Source: an uncultured bacterium
GTDB taxonomy: Bacteria; Krumholzibacteriota; Krumholzibacteriia; Krumholzibacteriales; Krumholzibacteriaceae
Reading direction: 5' to 3'
DNA length: 53,978 bases
NCBI GenBank assembly: GCA_965371515.1
Contig: CBDUYR010000018.1
Location: 1 to 53,978, forward strand
The notes beneath the pieces are model-generated. The model was not told where the DNA came from and ran no database searches. It worked only from the letters and a program-made list of their open reading frames with translations. A program made the translations under genes and the position numbers. Below are positions 34,361 to 48,204 of this stretch, in pieces (the stretch's first letter is position 1; each line of letters begins with the position of its first letter).

Positions 34361-36229
34361 CTACAAGGCGAACATAAGCACGAACGTCAGCGCTCCCAGC
34401 CCTATGATGACCCAGGACAGGTACGTCGACAGGATGCCGTTGTGCAGGCCCCTCAGCACCTGGACGATGTTGAACCCGATTTTGCCCCAGATGTTGTAGA
34501 CGTCCATGGCGCCTTCCTGCCCGTCCCTGAACAGGGCGGTCCAGGCGGGGTTCAGGTCGTCTGTTACAGTCTTATAGAAATCCGTGCCGGGGATCCTCAT
34601 CTCCTCGTTGTCCAGGATGTTTCCCCCGATCCACACGTTTTCATCAATGCGCACGCGTTTCGTCCTGCCGAACGCGTATATGATCAGTCCGACGATCACC
34701 CCGACGGCCATGAGGACCGTCGCCGCCACGGGGTTCCAGTATCCCGAAGCTGTGCTGACCGTCATCTCCTGGATGCTCACTCCCGTCGAACCTGCCACAC
34801 TCGGAGTTATGAATTTCTCGAGCGGCAGCTTCGCGTAGATGCCGAAGACTATGCAGAGGATCGCGAGGAATATCATCGGCACCTGCATGGTGAAGCCCGC
34901 CTCGCGCACGCCGTCGAACTTCTCCTGGCGCCTTCCGAGGAAGACTGAGTGCAGGACCTTGACGAACGAGGCGAGAGTCAATGCGCTTCCGAACACGGCC
35001 ACAATGAGGAATATGACGTTGTAGCCGGGACCCTCGAGCATCCCCTGGTAGACGAGCCACTTCGATACGAATCCGTTGAAAGGCGGCACACCGGAGATAG
35101 CCAGGGCCGCCACGAGGGTCGTGAGGAAGGTGACCGGCATCAGTCTCGCCAGCCCTCCGAGTTCTTCGAGGTTGGTTGTTCCGGCCCTCTTTTCGATCGC
35201 TCCGGCGGCAAGGAAGAGCCCGCTCTTGTATATCGCGTTGTTCAGCATGTGGAACAGTCCGCCTACAATCGCCACCGGTATCCCGCTGCCTACGCCGAGC
35301 ACCATGTACCCGACCTGACTGACCGCGTGGAAGGAGAGCAGTTTCTTGAAATCGTGCTGTACGAGCGCCATGAGAACGGCGAACAGTATCGTGACCGATC
35401 CGACGATCATCATCATCAGCGAGAGGCCCGAGCCGGTCCTGATCGAGAAGATGTCGAGCGAGATCCTCGCAAGCAGGTAGATCCCGAGCAGCTTGTCGAG
35501 AGCGGCTGGCAGGAACGCCATCGTCGGGGCAGGTGTCGACTTCGCCATCGCTGGCACCCACGAGTGCAGCGGCATCGCCCCGGCCTTCGCTATCGCTCCG
35601 ACGAAGAGGAGCAGGAAGGCTACCACTCCCGTCGTCGTGCCCGTCGAGATGCTGAGCGCCGAGATCGAGAGGGTCCCGTAGACGAGCCAGATGACAATCA
35701 CGCCGAGGAACATCGCTGCGTCGCTGAATCCGAGGATCGTGAAACACTTCTGCGCCGCCGTCTCGGCCCCATCCCCACCCATGTTGACCAGGAGGTAGAG
35801 AAGCAGCGTCAGTATCTCCCAGCATACGAGCAGCAGGAGAAGATTGTCGGAGAGCACGGCGCACGCGGCCGCCGAGAGCGTCCAGAGGATGTATGTATAG
35901 TATATCCCCGGGGTCTCCCTGTCCTTGAACCAGTACCCTATCGAATAGAGTATTATCAGAACGCCGAACAGCGCTATGAACAGAAGCACGAACGAGTTGA
36001 ACCCGTAGAGTCTCAGCGCAAAATCGAAATGGAAGACGTCGCCCATAGTGAAGACTGTCCTGAAGTATTCGGATTCGCCTACCCCGAACAGCTTGACCGT
36101 CTTGACGAACATCCACACGGACGATATCAACGCGATAATTCCGGCTGGCAGCCGCGCTTTCTTCGGAAAGAAGAGAGTCACGGCGCCCATCACTGCCGGC
36201 ATGACGATTATGTACAGAAGCTCATGCAT
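34361..36229 (-). CDS. Second antiporter-like subunit (NuoL/MrpA-N/HyfB/MbxH'-like) with C-terminal extension
   Basis: WEIL, AKAGAMPLHSW, KKLLSFHAVSQVGYM, GVPPFNGFVSKW; ends with LHNG.L..Y.SW plus a TM helix as in NuoL-type tails. Confidence 0.9.
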   Translation of the reverse strand: MHELLYIIVMPAVMGAVTLFFPKKARLPAGIIALISSVWMFVKTVKLFGVGESEYFRTVFTMGDVFHFDFALRLYGFNSFVLLFIALFGVLIILYSIGYWFKDRETPGIYYTYILWTLSAAACAVLSDNLLLLLVCWEILTLLLYLLVNMGGDGAETAAQKCFTILGFSDAAMFLGVIVIWLVYGTLSISALSISTGTTTGVVAFLLLFVGAIAKAGAMPLHSWVPAMAKSTPAPTMAFLPAALDKLLGIYLLARISLDIFSIRTGSGLSLMMMIVGSVTILFAVLMALVQHDFKKLLSFHAVSQVGYMVLGVGSGIPVAIVGGLFHMLNNAIYKSGLFLAAGAIEKRAGTTNLEELGGLARLMPVTFLTTLVAALAISGVPPFNGFVSKWLVYQGMLEGPGYNVIFLIVAVFGSALTLASFVKVLHSVFLGRRQEKFDGVREAGFTMQVPMIFLAILCIVFGIYAKLPLEKFITPSVAGSTGVSIQEMTVSTASGYWNPVAATVLMAVGVIVGLIIYAFGRTKRVRIDENVWIGGNILDNEEMRIPGTDFYKTVTDDLNPAWTALFRDGQEGAMDVYNIWGKIGFNIVQVLRGLHNGILSTYLSWVIIGLGALTFVLMFAL

Positions 36230-36264
36230 GCGTTCATCTCCGCTACGCGTAAATAAGTGTTACG

Positions 36265-37470
36265 TTACTTTCCCAGTTGCCTGCGGATCTCCTCTGTCTT
36301 CTCCGCTGACAGCCTTATCAGGTCTCCCTCCGAGAGAACGTATCTCTCGCCTGAATTAACATCGACTCGTCCAACACGCTCGGTGCACGAGTAACAGGGA
36401 TCGACGGCAGCCGTGATCAGGCCTGCGTCGGCTACAGTGTTGCCCGGCACGCTCACCTCGTTCGTCAGGATGTTGTTGAAGCTCGGGGCCCGGATCTTGT
36501 GCCTCATCGGTGTGTTCTTGCCATTCGAACGTATGTAGTGAAGCACCTCGCCGCGGGGGGCCTCGTAAACTCCGATGCCCTCGCCGGGCGGTATCTCGCC
36601 TATCTCCAGACAGAGCTCGCCGTCGTCCTTCATCGGACCCATCTCCTCGAGCTTGTCGAGGCACTGCCTGATGATCTTGACCGATTCGAAGTTCTCGAGC
36701 TGTCTCACGACGGCCTTGTCGAAGACGTCTCCGTTCTCGCAGACGATCACGTCGAAATCGAGCTCTCCGTACGCGTCGATCGGATGATCGCGCCTGGCGT
36801 CTACGTCGTATCCTCCCGCCCTGGCCGTCGGACCGAGCGCTCCGTAGAGGCGGCACTGTTCCTTGTTGAAGATCCCGACGGTCTTCAGTCTCGCGTGAAT
36901 GACCGGATCGTCGATGATCGCCTTGGTGAGCATATCGTTCTTTTCCCAGAGAGCATCGAGCATCTTGCGGATGTTCCCGTATTCCTCGGGCGGGATGTCG
37001 CGCCTGACGCCGCCGATGCGCATCATCGCGTAATGGTTCCTGTTGCCCGTCACTGCCTCGAGAATGTCGAGAAGGGGCTCGCGGTACTTCCAGCACCACA
37101 TGAATACCGTGTTGTACCCGATGAAATGGCCCGCCAGGCCCGTCCAGAGCAGGTGGCTGTGCAGCCTCTCCAGCTCGGCGGTGATGATCCTGATGTACTG
37201 GGCGCGTTTCGGGACCTCGACCTGCAGCAGGTCCTCGACTGCCTTGACATAGGCGTACGGATGGGAGCACGAGCAGATGCCGCAGACCCTCTCTACGAGG
37301 AAGGGCACCTGGTCCCAGGTCTTCGACTCGGAAAGAAGCTCGATCCCCCTGTGGCTCCAGCCGATCGTCATGTCGATATCTACCACGTTCTCCCCGTCGA
37401 CGTGGAGCTCGAAGAACTCGGGTTCCTCGAGAATCGGGTGGAACGGGCCGATCGGGATCTTTTTAACCAT
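36265..37470 (-). CDS. Group 4 [NiFe]-hydrogenase large subunit
   Basis: GPFHP.LEEP, HRGIE; L1 ERVCGIC and L2 DPCYSCTER with all four Cys; EAPRGE; 36-aa tail after the Arg. Confidence 0.94.
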   Translation of the reverse strand: MVKKIPIGPFHPILEEPEFFELHVDGENVVDIDMTIGWSHRGIELLSESKTWDQVPFLVERVCGICSCSHPYAYVKAVEDLLQVEVPKRAQYIRIITAELERLHSHLLWTGLAGHFIGYNTVFMWCWKYREPLLDILEAVTGNRNHYAMMRIGGVRRDIPPEEYGNIRKMLDALWEKNDMLTKAIIDDPVIHARLKTVGIFNKEQCRLYGALGPTARAGGYDVDARRDHPIDAYGELDFDVIVCENGDVFDKAVVRQLENFESVKIIRQCLDKLEEMGPMKDDGELCLEIGEIPPGEGIGVYEAPRGEVLHYIRSNGKNTPMRHKIRAPSFNNILTNEVSVPGNTVADAGLITAAVDPCYSCTERVGRVDVNSGERYVLSEGDLIRLSAEKTEEIRRQLGK

Positions 37471-37517
37471 TTCTGTTCACCTCTTTATCAACACAGCCTT
37501 GCAGGCTTGAAATTCTC

Positions 37518-38039
37518 TTACGGATTCTGTCCCTTCAGGGGTTTTCCCGCCACCTCGTCGGCTCTCTTCCGGCCATCGAGCTTCACGCGGGACATCTCGT
37601 GCTTGCACTTGTTCTCCCTCTTGTGAGGATAGAAGTCGGCAGGCCTCGTATCCGACCGCAGGACGGGCCTGAGGTCGGGGTGGTTCCTGAAGTTGACCTC
37701 GTACATCTCGAATATCTCCCGTTCGATCCATTTCGCGCCGGGTATTATCGGCGAGATCGAATCGAGCTCCGGATGAGGCTTGTTCGCGAACGTCTTTACG
37801 GTCACGTAGTACCCCTCGCGATCGAAGGGGAAAAAGAACATCACCTCGACGCCGTCGCGGTCGTCGACTGCGACGCCCGTGTCGAACCTCGCGTCGAGAT
37901 CGTTGAACAGGAACGAGGCGAGATCGACCCAGATCTCGTTCTCTGCATATATATAGACTCTCTTTTCCGACCGCTCGGCTATCTGTACCTTGTCGCCGAA
38001 TTTCTCCGCGATCCTTTTCTTTACTTCTTCCTTTTCCAT
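37518..38039 (-). CDS. NuoC/MbhK-like subunit
   Basis: SISPIIPGAKWIEREIFEMYEV.F..HPDLR motif. Confidence 0.9.
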   Translation of the reverse strand: MEKEEVKKRIAEKFGDKVQIAERSEKRVYIYAENEIWVDLASFLFNDLDARFDTGVAVDDRDGVEVMFFFPFDREGYYVTVKTFANKPHPELDSISPIIPGAKWIEREIFEMYEVNFRNHPDLRPVLRSDTRPADFYPHKRENKCKHEMSRVKLDGRKRADEVAGKPLKGQNP

Positions 38040-38067
38040 ATTTCCGGTTTCCCCGTGTTCGTCTTCC

Positions 38068-38481
38068 TTAAAGCGTTCCCAGTACCTTCACTACCCCCGC
38101 TATGATCGTTTCCGGCTTGGGGGGACAGCCGGGGACATACGCATCGACCGGGAGGAACTTGTCTACCGGTCCGATAATATTGTATCCGTCGCGGAAGATG
38201 CCGCAGCGGCATCCGCACGCCCCGATCACGATGACCTTGATCGGCTTCGGCGCCTGCTCGTACAGCCGCTTCAGGCGGGGCAGGATATTGCGCGTTACCG
38301 GGCCGCTGATGAGCAGCACGTCGGCGTGCCTGATGCTGCCCACGAGCAGGATGCCGAACCGCTCGATGTCGAACCTCGGCGTAAGAGCGTCGAGGATCTC
38401 TATGTCGCAGTTGTTGCACGCACCGGTGTTCACGTGAAAGACCCAGGGCGATTTCTTTAATGCTTTGAGCGCCAGTGACAT
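38068..38481 (-). CDS. Group 4 hydrogenase small subunit (NuoB/MbhJ-like)
   Basis: TGACNNCDIE, RHADVL, GAC and YVPGCPPKPE motifs. Confidence 0.94.
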   Translation of the reverse strand: MSLALKALKKSPWVFHVNTGACNNCDIEILDALTPRFDIERFGILLVGSIRHADVLLISGPVTRNILPRLKRLYEQAPKPIKVIVIGACGCRCGIFRDGYNIIGPVDKFLPVDAYVPGCPPKPETIIAGVVKVLGTL

Positions 38482-38498
38482 TTACAAGCCTCCGCGAC

Positions 38499-39431
38499 CT
38501 AGTACCCCAGCACCGCCAGGATCATTGCTATTATCGAAAGTACAAGCATCGGACCCCAGAAGAACCGCACTGCCTGGTCGATCCTCACCCTGGGGTTCGT
38601 ATTCTTAATAAGTACCATTATCGTTACTATAGCGACATACTTGAGGATCGTCGTGAGTATCCTCCAGCCGTCTAACGAGACACCGCCCCAGAACAGCGTG
38701 ATGATGAAGACCGGCACAACGAAGAACATTATGCCCATGTTCAGCTTCACGACGGCGAGCGGGGCGCCTGAATACTCGATATGGGTGCCTCCGGCCAGCT
38801 CCGTCTCCGCCTCGGGGATATCGAAGGGAAGCATCCCACACTTCGCCTGGGCGCAGAATATCGCGACGATGAACGCGATCACTCCCGAAGCGCTTCCAAG
38901 CATGACTCCGTTTGCGCTCTGGTAGCCGAGTATCTCCTCGAAGGAGAAGCTGCCGACCTTGTATACCGTCGTCATCATGACGATAACGAGAGGCAGTTCG
39001 TAGGCGAAGATCAGCTTCATCTCACGGGCGGCTCCGAGAATTCCCAGCGGGTTGCCCGAGGCGCTCGCTCCGATGATCATCGAGATCGCAGGGATCGTCA
39101 TGATATAGAGGACGACTATCGCGTCGCCGATAAATGACGACGAAGGATAGAGGTTGACCATCCACAGGATCGTCGAAGCCAGAGTGGCCGCGGCGAGGCC
39201 GACTACGGGAGCGAGTAGAAATCCGGTCGCCTTGGCCCCGGCGGGGACAATGACTTCCTTCCCGAGCAGCTTCACCATGTCGGCGAACGGCTGGTACCAG
39301 GGAGGCCCTACCCTCCAGTGCACCCTCGCGGTGACCTTGCGGTCCACCCACGTCGCCAGGAGGCCGGCTACCGCCGTGAATAGAAACCCGGGAAATATCA
39401 GATAGTTGAACAGATATTTCGCAGCGTCCAT
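38499..39431 (-). CDS. NuoH/MbhM-like membrane subunit
   Basis: DRKVTARV..RVGPP..QPFAD..KLL.KE; PFDIPEAETEL..G...EYSG; PRVRIDQA. Confidence 0.94.
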   Translation of the reverse strand: MDAAKYLFNYLIFPGFLFTAVAGLLATWVDRKVTARVHWRVGPPWYQPFADMVKLLGKEVIVPAGAKATGFLLAPVVGLAAATLASTILWMVNLYPSSSFIGDAIVVLYIMTIPAISMIIGASASGNPLGILGAAREMKLIFAYELPLVIVMMTTVYKVGSFSFEEILGYQSANGVMLGSASGVIAFIVAIFCAQAKCGMLPFDIPEAETELAGGTHIEYSGAPLAVVKLNMGIMFFVVPVFIITLFWGGVSLDGWRILTTILKYVAIVTIMVLIKNTNPRVRIDQAVRFFWGPMLVLSIIAMILAVLGY

Positions 39432-39443
39432 AGGTCCTCTCCG

Positions 39444-39923
39444 CTAACGCTCGAGCGTCCAGCGGGCGAAATAGCGCCCGCCTTCAGCGGCGTGTCTGTG
39501 TTTCTTCTCCAATTCGGTGAGCTCCTCGAACACTAGAGCTCCCGACGTACATGTCGCGACGCAGCGCGGCTGCTTTCCCTCGTCAAGTCTGTCATAACAG
39601 AGATCGCACTTCGGCGACAAATGCCATGTTGAATGCATGAACATCACGCCGAAGGGGCAGGACATGATGCACGACTTGCAGCCGATGCAGAGCTGGCTCA
39701 TACGCACGATCGTGCCGTTGTCGTCCTTCTTGATCGCATCCTGGGGACATACCTCGAGACAGAGCGGCGTGTCGCAGTGCCTGCATTGGAGAGGCATGAG
39801 GGCGACCTCTTCCACTGCTCCGTGCTTGAGCAGTCCCTGGTCATGGTGTCCCTGGGCGCAGGAGGCGGCGCACGCACGGCATCCTGTACACAGGTTCATG
39901 TTGATATAGATTCTCTTCTCCAT
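39444..39923 (-). CDS. HycB/HyfA/DmsB-like 4x[4Fe-4S] electron-transfer protein
   Basis: CTGCRACAASC, CRHCDTPLCLEVCP, CIGCKSCIMSCPFG and KCDLC...PRCVATC motifs. Confidence 0.92.
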   Translation of the reverse strand: MEKRIYINMNLCTGCRACAASCAQGHHDQGLLKHGAVEEVALMPLQCRHCDTPLCLEVCPQDAIKKDDNGTIVRMSQLCIGCKSCIMSCPFGVMFMHSTWHLSPKCDLCYDRLDEGKQPRCVATCTSGALVFEELTELEKKHRHAAEGGRYFARWTLER

Positions 39924-39927
39924 AACC

Positions 39928-41718
39928 TCAGCTCTTCTCGCTTTGCCTGCCCAGGGTCACCGCGACCGGGGCGAGGCTTATCTCACCGTGACGTTCATCC
40001 AGCCTCCATGGAAACAGCTTTCGGACCGAGGGGAAGTGTATCGTCGCCGCGACAGTCTTTCCCTCGAGCTTTCCTGTCGGCCTGGCCGCCAGCATGACCT
40101 CTCCGCCCTTGGAGACGACCTTCAGCATCTCGCCGCCACGAAGGTTCATCTCTTCGGCAATCTGCCTGGATACCATCAGCTCCGGCTCGGGGCATGTGAT
40201 CTTCGACCAGTGGAGGTTCCTGCTGATCGATCCGTCGGCGGCATGAACCGCCTCGCTCCACGGGATGAGGACGGTATCCGCGTTCTCCAGGCCCTTGATC
40301 TCTGCAGCGTAGCCCGCCCAGTCCGCAGCGAGGTTCTCGCCCGCACCGGTCCTTGCCGTCTTTCTCTCCACGGAAGCCGCCGCAAGCCCGACTCCCATCT
40401 CCTTCGCCAGATCGGTCAGAAACTGCCCGTCGCTGACAGTGCCGGCGAGCGGGACTATCGTCTCATTGCGTACTATGTCCTCTTCGAACGATGGCGACAC
40501 GGTGCCCTTCTTCTCGACAAGGGTCTCCGCGGGAATCACAACATTGGCGCCGGCTGCGGCCGTTCCGCTGAACAGCTGCGTAGCGACGGTGAACTTGCTT
40601 TCGCGAAGCGCCTTCTTCAACGGCGCGGCGGGGAAGACGGAAGACGGATCGAGGCCGAGCAGCACGAATGCCTGCACGCTGCCGGAGACGATGTTGGCAA
40701 GGGCTTTCCCGTTTCCTGCGCCGGCGGCGAGGACCGAGTAGATCCCCCAGGTGTTCTGCTGAACGAACTGGGCGTCGAAGACGGTCTCTCCGGGGCAGAT
40801 CCGCGTCACCGCCTCGGCCAGGACCGATGTCAGGCCGGGCGCTCCGAATCGTCCGAATATATTCGAAACGTATGTCTCGACAGAGGCGGCCCCGAGCATG
40901 GAGCCGGCAGCGCCCTCGAGATCGTCCCTCGAGACGCCGCCGAGACGTTCTATCTCGTTCCAGTCGAGCGAGCCGATCAGCTTCCCGAGCTCGCCGGGGA
41001 GCTGCGCGCCGCTCTTTGCGGCCTCCGCCTTGAGCAATCCGGCGAGGACCGCCGGCTCACCGCCCGGCCGGCACCCGAGGTGCCTGTTGGCGAACCACGC
41101 AGAGTGATTCTTCTCCGGACTTATCGTAATGACTTCGTTGCCCCTGCCCGCGAACTTGCCGGCCGCGACGGTCTTGGCCGTACACGGATGCTCGGAGAAG
41201 GGATCCCCGACGAGCAGGTATACCTGCCTCTCGCCGACGGGCTTCTGCCCGGCGGGTCCGAGACCGGAGAGGTCGTATTCCATCCACGCCCTGAACAGCG
41301 GGATGTCGTCGGGGGCCATAAGTGCGATGTTTTCGGTTCCTATCACCTCTCTGGCAAACTTCAGCGCGAGCGCAGCCTCCTCGTTCGTCAGGCCGTCGCC
41401 GATCAGGACGCCGATCGCGTCGCCGCCGGCCTCGTTCTTGATGGCCGAGAGATCCTTCGCCGCTTCCTTGACGGCCGCCTCGTAAGTCGACCTTTCTCCG
41501 AGGACGAACGGATAGTTGAGCCTGTCGGGGTGGGAGACGAATTCCACCATCGCCGCCCCGCGGGCGCAGAGGCTTCCGCCGTATTTCGAATCTTCACTGT
41601 CGTCCCAATCCAGAGAGAGAAGCGACTCGTTCGTGAAGATCGGGCTCCTGCCTCCACCCCTCAGGATCAGGGGACAGGCGAGGGAGCAGATCGAACAGTT
41701 GCTGCGTATTTCACTCAT
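39928..41718 (-). CDS. Molybdopterin-oxidoreductase-fold protein (FdhF/NuoG-C-like), probably non-catalytic
   Basis: CSICSLAC...LCARG cluster motif; DRL.YP; TNEE; A..ANVVIPA....EK.GT; C-terminal MopB-like domain; start moved to ATG 41718. Confidence 0.75.
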   Translation of the reverse strand: MSEIRSNCSICSLACPLILRGGGRSPIFTNESLLSLDWDDSEDSKYGGSLCARGAAMVEFVSHPDRLNYPFVLGERSTYEAAVKEAAKDLSAIKNEAGGDAIGVLIGDGLTNEEAALALKFAREVIGTENIALMAPDDIPLFRAWMEYDLSGLGPAGQKPVGERQVYLLVGDPFSEHPCTAKTVAAGKFAGRGNEVITISPEKNHSAWFANRHLGCRPGGEPAVLAGLLKAEAAKSGAQLPGELGKLIGSLDWNEIERLGGVSRDDLEGAAGSMLGAASVETYVSNIFGRFGAPGLTSVLAEAVTRICPGETVFDAQFVQQNTWGIYSVLAAGAGNGKALANIVSGSVQAFVLLGLDPSSVFPAAPLKKALRESKFTVATQLFSGTAAAGANVVIPAETLVEKKGTVSPSFEEDIVRNETIVPLAGTVSDGQFLTDLAKEMGVGLAAASVERKTARTGAGENLAADWAGYAAEIKGLENADTVLIPWSEAVHAADGSISRNLHWSKITCPEPELMVSRQIAEEMNLRGGEMLKVVSKGGEVMLAARPTGKLEGKTVAATIHFPSVRKLFPWRLDERHGEISLAPVAVTLGRQSEKS

Positions 41719-41768
41719 AGACGACTTTTCTTCCCGGGCCGCGGATGCGGGCCCAAACCACAAGCGAA

Positions 41769-42596
41769 CTAGCCGAACACGTTCGGAACGTGCTTGATCT
41801 TGTCGTAACACATATCAGGACCGTCGACGCACAGATAGTAGTGGCCGATATTGCAACGGCCGCACTTGCCCATGCCGCACGACATCTTCCTGTTCATCGA
41901 AAGATAGATCTGCGGGGGCTTGTAGCCGATCTCGAGAAGCTTAAGGGTAACGAACTTGAGCATGATCTCGGGGCCGCACGAGAGTGCGTAGCTGTCGACT
42001 ATGTCGATGCCCTCGAGCTTGTCGGGCTCCAGCAGCGTCGTCACCAGACCGACGTGCCCGCTCCAGTCGGGATGCGGGACATCGATCGTAGTCTGCAGCG
42101 ATATGTTGTCTGCAAGGGCGTTCCACTCGTCGTACTGCCTGCGGAAGCTCAGCTCCGCCGGTTCCCTCGCGCCGAACTTGATGACGATCTTCCTGTACTT
42201 CGACGGATCGTTGAAGAGGGCGTAGAGCAGCGACCTCATCGGGGCAAGGCCCACGCCTCCGCCCGCAACGAGGACATCCTTGCCTACAAGCTTGTCGAGC
42301 GGGTATCCCTTGCCGAACGGCCCTCTCAGCCCGACCGTGACGCCGGGACTGAGCTCGTGCAGCGCGTCCGTCACCTTTCCTGTCTTGAGGATGGTGATCT
42401 CCATCCTCTCGGTGATATTCGGGTCTGAACTGGGCGTGAACGGCGCCTCGCCCAATCCGGGGACGGTGAGCTGCATGAACTGGCCGGCACGGAACTCGAT
42501 CGGCCTGACCGGCTTGAGGACAAACGTCTTTATCGTCGGGGTCTCAGTTATAATATCTTCGACAACGGTATCGATGGGATAATACGGGTTTTTCAT
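41769..42596 (-). CDS. AsrB/HydG/FlxA-like FAD/NAD(P)-binding [2Fe-2S] subunit
   Basis: GQFMQL..PG.GEAPF, RGPFG.GYP, GGGVGLAP, CGPEIM and MSCGMGKCGRC..G...C.DGP motifs. Confidence 0.92.
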   Translation of the reverse strand: MKNPYYPIDTVVEDIITETPTIKTFVLKPVRPIEFRAGQFMQLTVPGLGEAPFTPSSDPNITERMEITILKTGKVTDALHELSPGVTVGLRGPFGKGYPLDKLVGKDVLVAGGGVGLAPMRSLLYALFNDPSKYRKIVIKFGAREPAELSFRRQYDEWNALADNISLQTTIDVPHPDWSGHVGLVTTLLEPDKLEGIDIVDSYALSCGPEIMLKFVTLKLLEIGYKPPQIYLSMNRKMSCGMGKCGRCNIGHYYLCVDGPDMCYDKIKHVPNVFG

Positions 42597-42609
42597 CCCA
42601 TTAGCTCCC

Positions 42610-43659
42610 TTACTTGGCTGCCTTGCTCATTACATTCCGGAACACTGCCCGCATGTCTATCCCGGCGCTGCACGTGTCGATGCACCTGCCGCAGCCGGTA
42701 CAGAAGATCTCGCCATGGCTGAGGGGCAGATAATCATACTTGTGATAATAACGGTGTTTGACGCGGTCGCTCAGGCGCGGCCTCGGGTTACCCATCCCGG
42801 CCATCCTCGCGTACCCGGTAACCTGGCAGCTGTCCCAGGACATCATCCTCCTGTACTTTTCCCCCTCTGCCGTATCGAACAGGAGGAAACAGTAGCAGGT
42901 CGGGCAGATATTGGTACAGGCTCCGCACTCTACGCATTTCGCCGACTCTTCGTCCCAGATCCCGTCGGTCAACACATTCTTGAGCGGCTCGTTCATCTTC
43001 GTCGCGTCGGGGAAATCCTTGTTTATCTTTTCGAGCTTCGCTACGACCTTCGCCCGCGCCTCGTCCCTGGCCTTCTCCTGGCCGTCGCGCGGAGCTGTGA
43101 AGAGATCTCCATTCTCTGAGATGACCTTCTCTCCTCGCTCCGATCCCGCCTCTATGAGATACCCCGCGTCGACCTTTGATATCGTCAGGTCGAAACCCTT
43201 TTCCGGCCAGGGCTTCCCGCCGAGCAGGGTGCAGAAGCATGACTCGCCGCAGTCGGTACAATCGGCGGCTATCGTGAACATCTTTTCCCTGCGTATCCGG
43301 TAGAACGGGTCCTCGAACTCTCCTTCGACCTGCACCTTGTCTACCAGTTCCATCGCTTTTACATCGCAGGCCCTCGCGCCGACCACGATGTACGAAAGCT
43401 CGTTTTCATCGGTCTCGAGCTCATCGAGTTCCTCGGATGGGTACTGAGCGACGGTCGAACGGAGAAGCTGCGCGAAGCCCTTCAGCGTCTCGACCGTACG
43501 GTATCCTTCGACGCTCATCTCTTCGGGAAGAGGAAAGGTTTCGATTCGCTCTATGTGGAGTTTCCCGGTGTCTTCTTCCGTGACGGGCACAAAAAGCTCT
43601 CCCTCACTGGAGAGTTTCTTGAGTAATCTCTCGAAGTTTGTCGAGTCGATAAACTGCAT
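42610..43659 (-). CDS. AsrA/HydB/FlxB-like Fe-S subunit
   Basis: GARACD, DPFY, CFC, CVECGACTNICPTCYCF, WDSC and CTGCGRCIDTC motifs; start moved to ATG 43659. Confidence 0.9.
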   Translation of the reverse strand: MQFIDSTNFERLLKKLSSEGELFVPVTEEDTGKLHIERIETFPLPEEMSVEGYRTVETLKGFAQLLRSTVAQYPSEELDELETDENELSYIVVGARACDVKAMELVDKVQVEGEFEDPFYRIRREKMFTIAADCTDCGESCFCTLLGGKPWPEKGFDLTISKVDAGYLIEAGSERGEKVISENGDLFTAPRDGQEKARDEARAKVVAKLEKINKDFPDATKMNEPLKNVLTDGIWDEESAKCVECGACTNICPTCYCFLLFDTAEGEKYRRMMSWDSCQVTGYARMAGMGNPRPRLSDRVKHRYYHKYDYLPLSHGEIFCTGCGRCIDTCSAGIDMRAVFRNVMSKAAK

Positions 43660-43854
43660 GTAGTTTTTTCCGTATAAATATCCGGCAACCGTGGACACGG
43701 CGGCCTTAATTCACCTTACCAGCAGCATGCCACCTTCAGCATGCCCGAGACAGCAGAGAGTACCATTCCACAGAGGGCCAAAAGTGTCAAGATTATTTTT
43801 TTCGGAAAACCGTAATAATGGGAGGGGACAAGCCTGAAGCATCGTACCGGGCGT

Positions 43855-43888
43855 AAAAAAAAGCGGACGGGCCGCCGGGCCCGTCCGC
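43855..43888 (-). terminator. Intrinsic terminator of tlpA
   Basis: Minus strand GCGGACGGGC-CCGGCG-GCCCGTCCGC followed by T8. Confidence 0.9.
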
Positions 43889-43916
43889 CGCAGATTACAT
43901 GACAGGAGATTTTCCG

Positions 43917-44843
43917 CTACTCCTTCAGAAGCTTCTCGACCGCCTCCTCGAGATCATTGCCGCGGAGATTCTTGTACCTGATCTTTCCCTGTTTGTCGAT
44001 AAGGAAGGTGGAGGGAATCGAACTGACCGCGTAGAGCTGGCCTATCTCGGCCTTCCAGCCATTGCCGTCGTAGATCTGGCGCCACTTCATGTCCTGTTCC
44101 TTCACGTAGGAATCGAAGGCGGCGCGGTTGTTGTCCATCGAGACGCCGATGATATCGAAACCCTTCTCGTGATAGGTCGAGTAGATCTTTTTGACGGCGG
44201 GCATCTCCACCCGGCAGGGTGCGCACCATGTTGCCCAGAAGTCGAGGAGAACGACCTTACCCCTGTAGTCGGAAGGGCTGATCATAGTGCCGTTGACATC
44301 CATGGTCTTGAAGTCTATCGCCGACGCCCCGATCTTGAGCTTCTTCATCGTATCGAGGCGCGCGAGCATTCCTTCGGCCGATGCCTTCATCTCCGGATTG
44401 ATCCCTTCGACGGCGGCGGCCTTACGAAGGGCCTTCTCGGCCCCGTTGAAATCGTCCTCGGCCAGACTGGCGTTGCCTATCGACATCCACGCCATCCCCT
44501 CTTCCGATGGCTCTTTCGGGAATTTGCTCTCGTTGTACTTGTTCAGGATCTCTTTCGCTTCCGCACCCTTTCCGATTTGTGAATAGATCTGCCCGAGCAT
44601 CACCATCGCGCTGCCCGATGCCGCCGTGCCGGCGTGCGCCTCGATGATGCCCTTCAGTCCCTCTTCGGCCTTGACGATGAGCTGGTCCATCGGGATCGTG
44701 TTCCGGCCCCGCTGGAGCTCTGCCATCAGCTGCTCGTACGCCTCCTTCGCCGCGGCCTCACTAGCGGCGTCGGCAACGGCCACGCCGGCGAATACGGCCA
44801 GCGCCATCAGGGCCAGCACGAAAATCCTTATTTTTCCTGTCAT
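43917..44843 (-). CDS. Exported TlpA/ResA-like thiol-disulfide oxidoreductase with TPR-like N-terminal domain
   Basis: Signal peptide; helical TPR-like region; GKVVLLDFWATWCAPC and IPSTFLIDKQG motifs. Confidence 0.9.
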   Translation of the reverse strand: MTGKIRIFVLALMALAVFAGVAVADAASEAAAKEAYEQLMAELQRGRNTIPMDQLIVKAEEGLKGIIEAHAGTAASGSAMVMLGQIYSQIGKGAEAKEILNKYNESKFPKEPSEEGMAWMSIGNASLAEDDFNGAEKALRKAAAVEGINPEMKASAEGMLARLDTMKKLKIGASAIDFKTMDVNGTMISPSDYRGKVVLLDFWATWCAPCRVEMPAVKKIYSTYHEKGFDIIGVSMDNNRAAFDSYVKEQDMKWRQIYDGNGWKAEIGQLYAVSSIPSTFLIDKQGKIRYKNLRGNDLEEAVEKLLKE

Positions 44844-44924: not shown

Positions 44925-45986
44925 TTACCTCTTTACCGTATCCTTCGTCAGCCTCACGGATCCCTTGATCGGTACCACGAGTTCCTCGTATCCAGGATAG
45001 TTGGTCAGGAACTTCAGCGAAGCCTCGTACTTTCCCGGCTCAGCTTTCGGACGGATCTGGAACCTGCACGTGTACGCCTTGCCGGGTTTGACTTCCCTGA
45101 TATTCCAGGTTATCGTCTCGTCGCTCGGGATCACGTCGAGGATCTTCAGCGAGTCTCCCCTGGCCGAGATGACCGACACTACCTTTTCGAAGTTCTTCGA
45201 CGTTCCCTCGGTCATCACGAGCTCCCTCATGTATATCGTGCTCGGATGGAGTTCGACGTCATCCATGATATGGAGCCGGAATGTCATCTTCTTCTCGGGA
45301 AGCTTTTCGAAATCGGTCTCGATAAACAGATCGGCGAAGTACTGCTTGGGCGGAAGGTCTTTCTTCAGCCATGTCTCGATCTTGTACTTCTTTCCCTTCT
45401 CGATCGTCGTGATCTTGATTCCGACGCCCTCCTCGAGAGCCTTCCTGTCCCTGCTCTTCTCGGACCAGTGATATCCGGTCAGGTCGATCTCCTCTTCGAG
45501 AGCCGACGTGAGTATCACTTCTTCCTTGAGCTTTTCGCCCTTGTACCCCGAAAGAGACAACCCCTTGGAAGCCTGGAAGACCTGCTTGACATGCCCGATG
45601 ACGCTGAGCGTCACCTTCGTGTTTTCGGGATCGTTCGTCTTCACCGTGAAGCTCTTCTTGAAGCGCCCTGGGCGAAGCTTGTGTCCTATGAGTTTTACAC
45701 CTATCGTTCCCTCCGACCCGGGAGGGATGACCTCGTCATAGTCGGCCACTGAGCAGCCTCACCCGGGGCGGACGCCGAGTATGTGAAGTTCCGCCACCCC
45801 GTTGTTCCTCACCTTGAACTCATACTCAATGTCTTCGCCTTCGTAGAAGGTGCCGAGATCGGGCTCCTTGTTCCTTATGTACATCTTCGGCGGGTCTTTC
45901 TGTGCCGCTGCTGGCGCCGACGCGAGGACCGTCGCCATCACGGCGAAGGTCACGGCCGCCAGACCCAGCTTTCTCGAAAGGTTCAT
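44925..45986 (-). CDS. Exported DUF1573-domain (Ig-like) selenoprotein, 353 aa, Sec76 in a U-G-C motif
   Basis: ORFs 45759-46046 and 44925-45749 are in frame across TGA 45761-45759, reading VRPG-U-GCSVADYD..IPPG..G.I; this matches the DUF1573 V.PSCGCT..IPPG pattern; GGAGG RBS and signal peptide at 45986. Confidence 0.82.
45713..45745 (-). promoter_or_regulatory. Candidate bacterial SECIS element of the DUF1573 gene
   Basis: CCGAC-T-ATGAC-GAG-GTCAT-N9-GTCGG; loop begins with G, 24 nt after UGA; alternative hairpin TCCCTCC/GGAGGGA at 45708-45727. Confidence 0.55.
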
Positions 45987-46182
45987 AGAGTGTCCTCCAT
46001 CTGACGGGCACCGGTTCGCAGCCTCGCCCGCCCATACATGATTCATCCACTGAAAACAGACCCGATACCCCCACCGTTACCTACAAATCCGCCCGGGGGG
46101 ATCGGGACTTTCCCATATCGACCAATAGTACATTATAAAACAGTAAGCACCGCAGGTTCCACCAATTATTTCGTCGCGCGCC

Positions 46183-47205: not shown

Positions 47206-48204
47206 CTATTTGGGCACGTACCAGTATTTCGAATCGGGGTGATCGGCCACCCATTCGTCCCATGTCGTCTTTACCGACGGCCGGTAGGGAAGGATCCTGT
47301 CGGCCAGCGGCCCCGCGACCCCGGTCAGCCCACGCGCTCTCTCGAAGGGAAACCACATGGTCCACGTCTCACGGTCATAGAGCACAAAAGTGGAGAAGTA
47401 GGTCCACCCGCTCGCTCCCAGCGTCAGGATCTCTCCGTCGATTTCTCTGCTGCACACGGCAGCAAATCCGCGGAGTGGTCAGTAGACTACGGCCAGCGCC
47501 TCGTCGCCGAACCAATCGTTCACCACCTCGCGCATGCTGATCGTCGAGATCGGATACGCACGGGCATCGCCCCCGATTTCGACACCGATGATCTGCGTCA
47601 TCAGAGTAGAGGGCGGATACTCCGGATCGCCCGGAGAGAAAAATTGCGGGTCATTGACGGGCAGTATCGCGTCAGGCCCCAGGCCGTGCCCCCAGTATTC
47701 CACATCCATCCCGTAGACCTCGACCGCATGGGTTATGTCCCATAACAGGCCGGTAGAATCCTCGATGAAGATCCCTGCGACCACGGAAAAAGTCGCGTCT
47801 GACATATCGGAGGCGGATAGCCCGGAGGTATCAACGGCCGTGACGCTGATGAGATATGAACTGCCCTCTTCCACCAGGCTCAGGTCCCATTCGAGGCTGC
47901 CGGTGTTTCCGCCAGGATTGAGGACCTCCTTCCAGGTCCTGCCCAGGTCAGCGCTGAACTCGACCATTATGGCAAGCAACTCGGTCTCGCCCGGGTCGGG
48001 ATCTTCAGCGGTCCATTTGATCCCTATCTCGCCTCCCAGGCGCTCGCCTCCGTTCGGGAAGGTGACCACAACCGAAGGCGGCTCGGGCTCATCAGCCCCG
48101 AGATCCATCGGATTCATCGCCCCTCCTTCTTCCGTGCCGCAGCCGCCCAGCAGGACAGCGATAAGAGTCATCGGTAAAATGAGTTTTCTGGTGAATTCTG
48201 ACAT
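47206..48204 (-). CDS. DUF3179-domain (seleno)lipoprotein with Ig-like N-terminal domain, 332 aa, Sec242
   Basis: ORFs 47479-48204 and 47206-47457 are in frame across TGA 47481-47479, reading ARAYP....REVVND.FG..ALAVVY-U-PLRG...SG......VLYDRET..W...G.L....TTW..W...HPDS; lipobox LGGC. Confidence 0.85.
47440..47468 (-). promoter_or_regulatory. Candidate bacterial SECIS element of the DUF3179 gene
   Basis: TTTGCTGC-CGTGT-GCAGCAGA, an 8-bp stem with one G-U; G is the second loop base; loop starts 20 nt after UGA. Confidence 0.6.

Follow-up and report, generated by a model that had tools for sequence, protein, structure and literature searches.

Selenoproteins with a DUF1573 domain have been catalogued under several labels. 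A family named OS_HP2 was reported as new in 2007 (PMC1976440) and tabulated in 2008 as pfam07610 with the motif UxC (PMC2398784); Table 1 of PMC9312934 lists a 'DUF1573 domain-containing protein, PF07610, motif UGC', and Table 1 of PMC13188914 places the DUF1573 UGC family under 'Predicted with high confidence'. DUF1573 proteins also appear in two other papers, solely as table entries. The passages found in this literature give neither a function nor a partner for DUF1573/OS_HP2 selenoproteins. For the bacterial SECIS element (bSECIS), the legend of Fig. 2 in PMC13188914 describes a consensus with a 4-16 bp stem, a 3-9 nt loop, a G among the first two loop positions, a minimum free energy of at most -7.5 kcal/mol and 16-37 nt between the UGA and the apical loop; the same paper states that some SECIS elements depart from this model.

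Here we analysed a 53,978-nt stretch of DNA (the window) from an uncultured bacterium, whose genome (G000; 3.08 Mb, 99.6% complete) contains one match to the DUF1573 protein described below and one to PF07610. Ca. Krumholzibacteriota MAGs are among the named records of close relatives (81-89% identical), and every sequencing run with a word share of at least 0.2 is a marine sediment, cold seep or sediment metagenome. On the reverse strand, positions 45986 to 44925 form one frame of 353 codons plus TAA, and its sole internal stop is a TGA in the context RPG*GCSV (Table 1), in agreement with a preliminary description of two in-frame ORFs parted by the TGA alone. That description had also expected standard annotation to yield fragments, and this is what the databases hold: among the best 120 of 209 protein matches, 96 are C-terminal pieces of 269-291 aa beginning past the motif, and the 24 full-length proteins all read C-G-C. 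The databases therefore split this gene. The signal peptide was assigned by eye and from the AlphaFold2 helix at residues 3-23; it suggests that the protein is likely exported after cleavage near residue 28. A promoter scan at the locus gave nothing above chance.

Table 1. Features of the selenoprotein locus and its partner gene (window coordinates)
Feature	Position	Strand	Details
Terminator-like hairpin, 12 bp	43862..43889	-	3' of the TlpA-like gene
TlpA/ResA-type partner gene (candidate)	43917..44843	-	308 aa; signal-like N-terminus, helical TPR-like region, thioredoxin domain, C-A-P-C 207-210
Weaker terminator-like hairpin, 6 bp	44883-44865	-	Between DUF1573 and TlpA-like genes
Predicted selenoprotein gene	44925..45986	-	353 aa; ATG 45986, TAA 44927-44925; signal-peptide-like N-terminus and three Ig-like domains
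DUF1573 (PF07610) Ig-like domain 1, residues 38-133	45588..45875	-	Also matches PF22544 HYDIN/VesB-like Ig
Conserved SECIS candidate UCCCUCC-CGGGUC-GGAGGGA	45708..45727	-	7 bp, -12.8 kcal/mol; loop 45720-45715
Hairpin ATGAC-GAG-GTCAT of the preliminary description	45727..45739	-	Present, weak, poorly conserved
Short proximal helix GGCC/GGUC	45729..45747	-	Starts 11 nt past UGA; conserved in Sec copies
Cys78 of U-G-C motif	45755-45753	-	Codon position
In-frame TGA, putative Sec76 of U-G-C	45759..45761	-	Turn between strands 67-74 and 79-83
Likely Sec-type signal peptide, residues 1-28	45903..45986	-	Charged start, hydrophobic core, AAA/Q; by eye, AF2 helix 3-23
Shine-Dalgarno-like GGAGGA	45993..45998	-	6 nt 5' of ATG

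The PF07610 match runs across the TGA codon and scores 69.1 bits against a cut-off of 26.1. The dedicated OS_HP2 model, NF041425, matches residues 45-134 over profile positions 9-98 of 98 (E 1.4e-24) with 86.3 bits (80.1 when the DNA is translated through the stop), short of the 100 that it requires; we therefore file the protein under the PF07610/UGC family and not under NF041425. Like OS_HP2, it has a PF07610 domain, a single Sec codon in U-G-C at the position of the first Cys, Cys homologs and a downstream stem-loop. It differs from OS_HP2, as far as the passages found describe the latter, in its two further Ig-like domains and in a loop lying at 38-39 nt, and its relatives are labelled Ca. 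Krumholzibacteriota whereas OS_HP2 was described from Olavius deltaproteobacterial symbionts. We also name a candidate TlpA partner, which those passages do not mention for OS_HP2. The gene is thus a member of a catalogued selenoprotein family and not the founder of a new one, and the novelty implied by the preliminary description did not hold, since DUF1573/UGC proteins are already listed in the four sources cited above, as seen in the passages found.

Comparison across genomes argues that the internal TGA is almost certainly decoded as selenocysteine. All four Sec genes are present in the genome: selA (505.9 bits), selB (362.5) and selD (364.8) score over their cut-offs, and a tRNA-Sec with anticodon TCA (UCA) scores 71.5 bits; selD carries an in-frame TGA of its own. 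A homolog of the DUF1573 protein was found in 54 of the 61 genomes searched, and the 61 copies at 52 fetched loci, with identity down to 22%, carry TGA (47 copies), TGC (11) or TGT (3) at column 76. The 47 TGA copies come from 43 genomes, 41 of which have selB over the cut-off (56 of 61 across the whole set); in the two others, G006 (92% complete) and G033 (81%), both incomplete, it was not found. Another 20 loci, hand-picked from a phylum-wide search, have TGA in 8 cases and TGC/TGT in 12. According to the passage found in PMC1976440, a Sec family is recognised by Cys homologs at the Sec column together with TGA in at least two sequences; here the column holds 14 Cys and 47 TGA. The preliminary description had proposed that Sec replaces the first Cys of a CGC motif in a 353-aa exported protein, and this proposal stands on the machinery, on the TGA/Cys alternation and on the Sec-specific hairpin described below, with export being predicted. 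One full-length homolog, 44% identical, lies in a record titled 'Patescibacteria group bacterium' (L058), a label that looks doubtful.

Two structures conserved in Sec copies lie downstream of the UGA. The distal hairpin (45727-45708), probably the SelB site, has seven pairs; the outermost forms with a probability of 0.71 and the other six with 0.96-1.0. Its loop begins 38 nt past the UGA (39 nt in copies with a GGUC loop). Its 6-bp core is intact in 44/47 TGA copies and 0/14 Cys copies, counts that are inflated by kinship among the relatives. We aligned 46 of the 47 TGA copies and 10 of the 14 Cys copies, leaving out G059 and four distant Cys copies because they are out of register; the hairpin cells are 95.3% paired in the former versus 50% in the latter, the mean pairing probability is 0.89 versus 0.02, and slid-position controls are 52-72% paired. 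Pair 38/51 of the alignment is C-G in 28 copies and U-A in 17, a pattern reached by 0/500 shuffles; the corresponding codons are CCT/GAG versus CTT/GAA, exchanging Pro for Leu on one side and silent on the other. Among the further loci, 7 of the 8 TGA copies hold all six pairs, all of them with the GGUC loop that is also found in the genome's own PrxU gene, and the 12 Cys copies are a weak control because they are offset by one codon. Pairing in the proximal helix amounts to 98.4% of cells in TGA copies and 67.5% in Cys copies, and all 8 further TGA copies keep its four pairs; in our sequence it is weak (-4.5, probability 0.29). It may bring the distal hairpin effectively closer to the UGA.

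The distal hairpin resembles the bSECIS consensus in its 6-nt loop (CGGGUC), its 7-bp stem, its loop G (position 2, followed by another G) and its energy of -12.8 kcal/mol. Unlike the consensus, it lies 38-39 nt from the UGA, outside the range of 16-37 nt, and a second short conserved helix stands in between; candidate loops of four other likely Sec genes in the genome lie at 16-23 nt. The preliminary description had placed the SECIS in the neighbouring ATGAC-GAG-GTCAT hairpin with its outer CCGAC/GTCGG stem. The letters are present as described, but the conserved hairpin is the next, overlapping one downstream. The inner stem of the former has -2.4 kcal/mol, short of the consensus energy limit (-7.8 with the outer stem), its pair probabilities are 0.04-0.12 (0.0 for the outer stem), and only 8/47 TGA copies have a G in the loop (A in 39/47) and 8/47 have an intact outer stem, so we rejected it. 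On the alignment it is 72.4% paired, above most shuffles (2 of 500), and 36 of 46 copies break the outer pairs at alignment positions 19/47 and 20/46. Taken whole, the region 45700-45761 is no more stable than shuffled sequence (z -0.75); what speaks for a SECIS is the conservation of the distal hairpin.

A quick tree search of 55 rows, rooted at the midpoint, recovered one group of 31 Sec and 7 Cys copies (SH-aLRT 97) and another of 16 Cys copies with a single long-branch Sec copy (G059). All 7 Cys copies in the Sec group are tandem paralogs of Sec copies. This fits a change from Sec to Cys after duplication, an order of events that the tree does not prove. Tandem duplicates with one Sec and one Cys copy occur at L046, L049, L063, L064, L070 and L072-L074; the Cys member has lost the SECIS hairpin, and such duplicates are natural controls for comparing Sec with Cys function.

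AlphaFold2, run on a 50-row alignment, predicted the protein with a pLDDT of 92.3 as an N-terminal helix followed by three Ig-like beta-sandwiches at about residues 35-134, 137-241 and 244-347, with U76-G-C78 in the turn between two strands of the first. C/U76 and C78 are invariant in this alignment and no other Cys or His is. The closest structure match of domain 1 is 2qsv (Z 14.9, rmsd 1.6 over 103 residues), a functionally uncharacterised protein from Porphyromonas gingivalis; likeness of fold does not by itself reveal function. Further matches are to PapD/ASH/HYDIN/MSP-type Ig domains, with VesB/VesC Ig, HYDIN and VAP MSP domains at Z 10-11.5. Identity to 2qsv and to the VesB/VesC domains is at most 18%. 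Sequence searches of the PDB gave no significant match, and Foldseek returned nothing but tandem-Ig look-alikes, none with a TM-score above 0.37 among the matches listed.

The gene directly downstream of the DUF1573 gene encodes a TlpA-like protein with a CxxC motif. Such a gene follows in 41 of the 52 loci, 80-291 nt past the end of the match. Of the 11 loci without it, four end at a contig edge and seven, with room downstream, lack it: six loci of distant homologs and that of a second copy in G010. Two of the seven are TGA copies (the second G010 copy and G059). In G140, which has a TGA copy, no TlpA match was found. The further loci show a TlpA-like gene downstream of 7/8 Sec copies and 0/12 Cys copies. 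Downstream of distant Cys forms, rhodanese and MauE/DoxX genes take the place of the TlpA-like gene (17/17 ORFs tested, 10 of 12 loci), and ORFs from G047, G049 and G052 likewise match rhodanese or MauE/DoxX. These counts are not independent, because gene order is inherited among relatives. Conservation of the hydrogenase-like genes downstream and of nifS/nifU/nadA upstream is confined to 17-27 genomes, and the TlpA pairing persists in G048, G053 and G058, where hydrogenase-like neighbours were not found in the fetched stretch. In the window, a cluster resembling a membrane-bound group-4 [NiFe]-hydrogenase lies directly past the TlpA-like gene (34361-43698, reverse strand), with Fe-S, molybdopterin-like and FAD/NAD-binding subunits; its nearest genes are kept in about 23-27 genomes. 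The TlpA-like gene at L055:7099-8068 (G006) carries a frameshift near residue 212, which may be an assembly artefact; the same genome is one of those without selB over the cut-off. Of 151 genomes sampled from the phylum, 136 have a match at E <= 1e-15 to a profile of the DUF1573 family, and this breadth suggests that the protein serves a core envelope function there.

It is extremely improbable that the TGA is a true stop, whether of a pseudogene, through a sequencing error or between two genes, or that TGA is read as Trp or Gly genome-wide. The databases do call a downstream protein of 269-291 aa, for which the GTG at 45749 could serve as start. However, 43 genomes share the TGA at a column that aligns with Cys and not with Trp, the hairpin covaries with it, and the stop would split a beta-sandwich and leave a downstream piece with no signal. 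TGA ends 488 of the 897 long ORFs in the genome and is its commonest stop, which rules out general recoding, and we rejected this whole set of explanations. The read check at the site was made on contigs only: one from a single run covers the stretch with 0 differences, which speaks against a sequencing error, though this DNA may itself derive from that run. A contig from an RNA run (study P7) covers 45732-45813, also with 0 differences, but was counted neither as bridging the TGA nor as expression, since it has 27 letters on one side of it and our rule asks for 31.

Given a selenoprotein, the U-G-C motif might serve purposes other than electron exchange. We regard it as unlikely that it binds a soft metal (Cu, Hg, Zn) in an envelope chaperone or sensor whose TlpA-like neighbour merely keeps the ligands reduced. 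C-x-C motifs do bind soft metals, the motif is modelled in a turn, and TlpA-type proteins reduce metal chaperones such as Sco; yet no copper or heavy-metal gene family appears among the recurring neighbours, only some of which have Pfam names, and the 50-row alignment holds no third ligand (His, Met or Cys) that is invariant or nearly so, the start Met excepted. Less probable still is a structural or regulatory Se-S bond, or a PapD-like chaperone or adhesin job of the Ig domains, with the thioredoxin link reflecting inherited gene order. The fold matches, to PapD/ASH/MSP-type Ig domains and pilus chaperones, have no redox role, and synteny alone is weak evidence because the hydrogenase-like and nifS/nifU/nadA neighbours are conserved as well (17-27 genomes). 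Against this, the link to TlpA persists across families for longer than those to the other neighbours, the Cys clade exchanges TlpA for another sulfur-handling pair, rhodanese with MauE/DoxX, and Sec is costly to keep and usually marks a catalytic site.

A redox role for the U-G-C domain fits the gene neighbours. We consider it rather probable that this single, Sec-decoded gene encodes a likely exported three-Ig protein whose U-G-C motif is a redox switch exchanging electrons with the downstream TlpA/ResA-type thioredoxin. In this mechanism, the hairpin 38 nt downstream would recruit SelB with Sec-tRNA, and Sec would be inserted at the UGA. In the envelope, Sec76 and Cys78 in the turn of domain 1 would alternate between a selenol/thiol state and a bonded one, selenenylsulfide or mixed, with the CxxC partner carrying out the exchange and domains 2-3 acting as a stalk or binding surface. 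The pair would serve envelope disulfide reduction or repair, a direction of exchange and a kind of substrate that we infer. The N-terminal domain of DsbD is a periplasmic Ig fold bearing a dithiol, through which it exchanges electrons with TlpA/CcmG and other proteins of the thioredoxin fold, and the pair described here may work in a like manner, an Ig-fold envelope domain with a redox pair facing a TlpA-type partner. The likeness is one of working principle and makes no claim of membership: here a U-G-C turn takes the place of the DsbD cysteine pair, there is no membrane domain, and no Pfam match to DsbD_N (PF11412) was found at E <= 0.01. No DsbD entry is among the 50 structure matches listed, an absence that excludes nothing.

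The genome contains other likely Sec genes. A second one lies in the window, 1.2 kb upstream (48204..47206, reverse strand): a DUF3179 protein of 332 aa by read-through, with TGA at 47481-47479 (VVY-U-PLRG) and a stem-loop whose loop is 20 nt past the TGA. The column has TGA in 7 related loci examined and Cys in 2. In contrast to the catalogued DUF3179 family, with UxxC/T, most copies here have U-P-L-R/Q/V and no second Cys. Elsewhere in the genome we found PrxU at C47:14275 (-) (NF040737, 414.8 bits), a TPR-like/TlpA protein with T-U-P-P-C at C3:87039 (+), a small protein with V-P-T-U-M and no NCBIfam match at C28:5726 (+), and selD in the C5:36822 region (-). A genome-wide read-through scan by dicodon score was noisy: it gave 105 candidates, mostly gene junctions, and missed both selD and the DUF3179 gene. 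One candidate, C5:29166, was rejected because its stop lies just 5' of the sdhA start.

Outside the window, at C30:30009-31292 (+; loci L099/L116), we observed a secreted repeat protein with an in-frame TGA in SPGGG-U-LGIFPRV, FG-GAP/VCBS-like by eye and with a weak match to a T9SS tail. A CGCGU-GGUCG-ACGCG hairpin has its loop 20 nt past the TGA; the column is TGA in 8 genomes, ours included, and TGC in 5 copies, and two further copies have the TGA one codon before a Cys (U-C). It matches no NCBIfam selenoprotein model, FG-GAP/VCBS terms are absent from the passages of PMC13188914 found, and the literature search found none. This protein possibly represents an uncatalogued selenoprotein family, and would then be more novel than the DUF1573 finding.

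On sequence comparison, the locus provides a known, functionally uncharacterised selenoprotein family with a new member whose Sec codon is well conserved, and what it adds is the partner-gene pattern and the distant hairpin. The need to correct the annotation is real, as seen from the 96 fragments among the best 120 database matches. Placed 38-39 nt away with a helix in between, the SECIS offers a modest test of the reach of SelB. The three-Ig layout, the distribution in 136 of 151 genomes and the Sec/Cys partner split were not found in the published passages available. More tentatively, and short of an even chance, DUF1573 may be an Ig-fold redox domain in a near-universal three-Ig protein that takes part in an undescribed envelope relay with two versions, one of Sec with a TPR-TlpA protein and one of Cys with rhodanese and MauE/DoxX, and the pairing of its distant, two-hairpin SECIS may dictate the choice between Pro and Leu. 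For a family listed as unknown since 2007, the TlpA-like CxxC protein offers a handle on function as candidate partner, and rhodanese with MauE/DoxX is proposed as the second partner set, for the Cys clade. A simple redox assay with two proteins becomes possible, since a candidate partner is named, the Cys clade has a second set, and Sec and Cys paralogs occur in tandem within single genomes.
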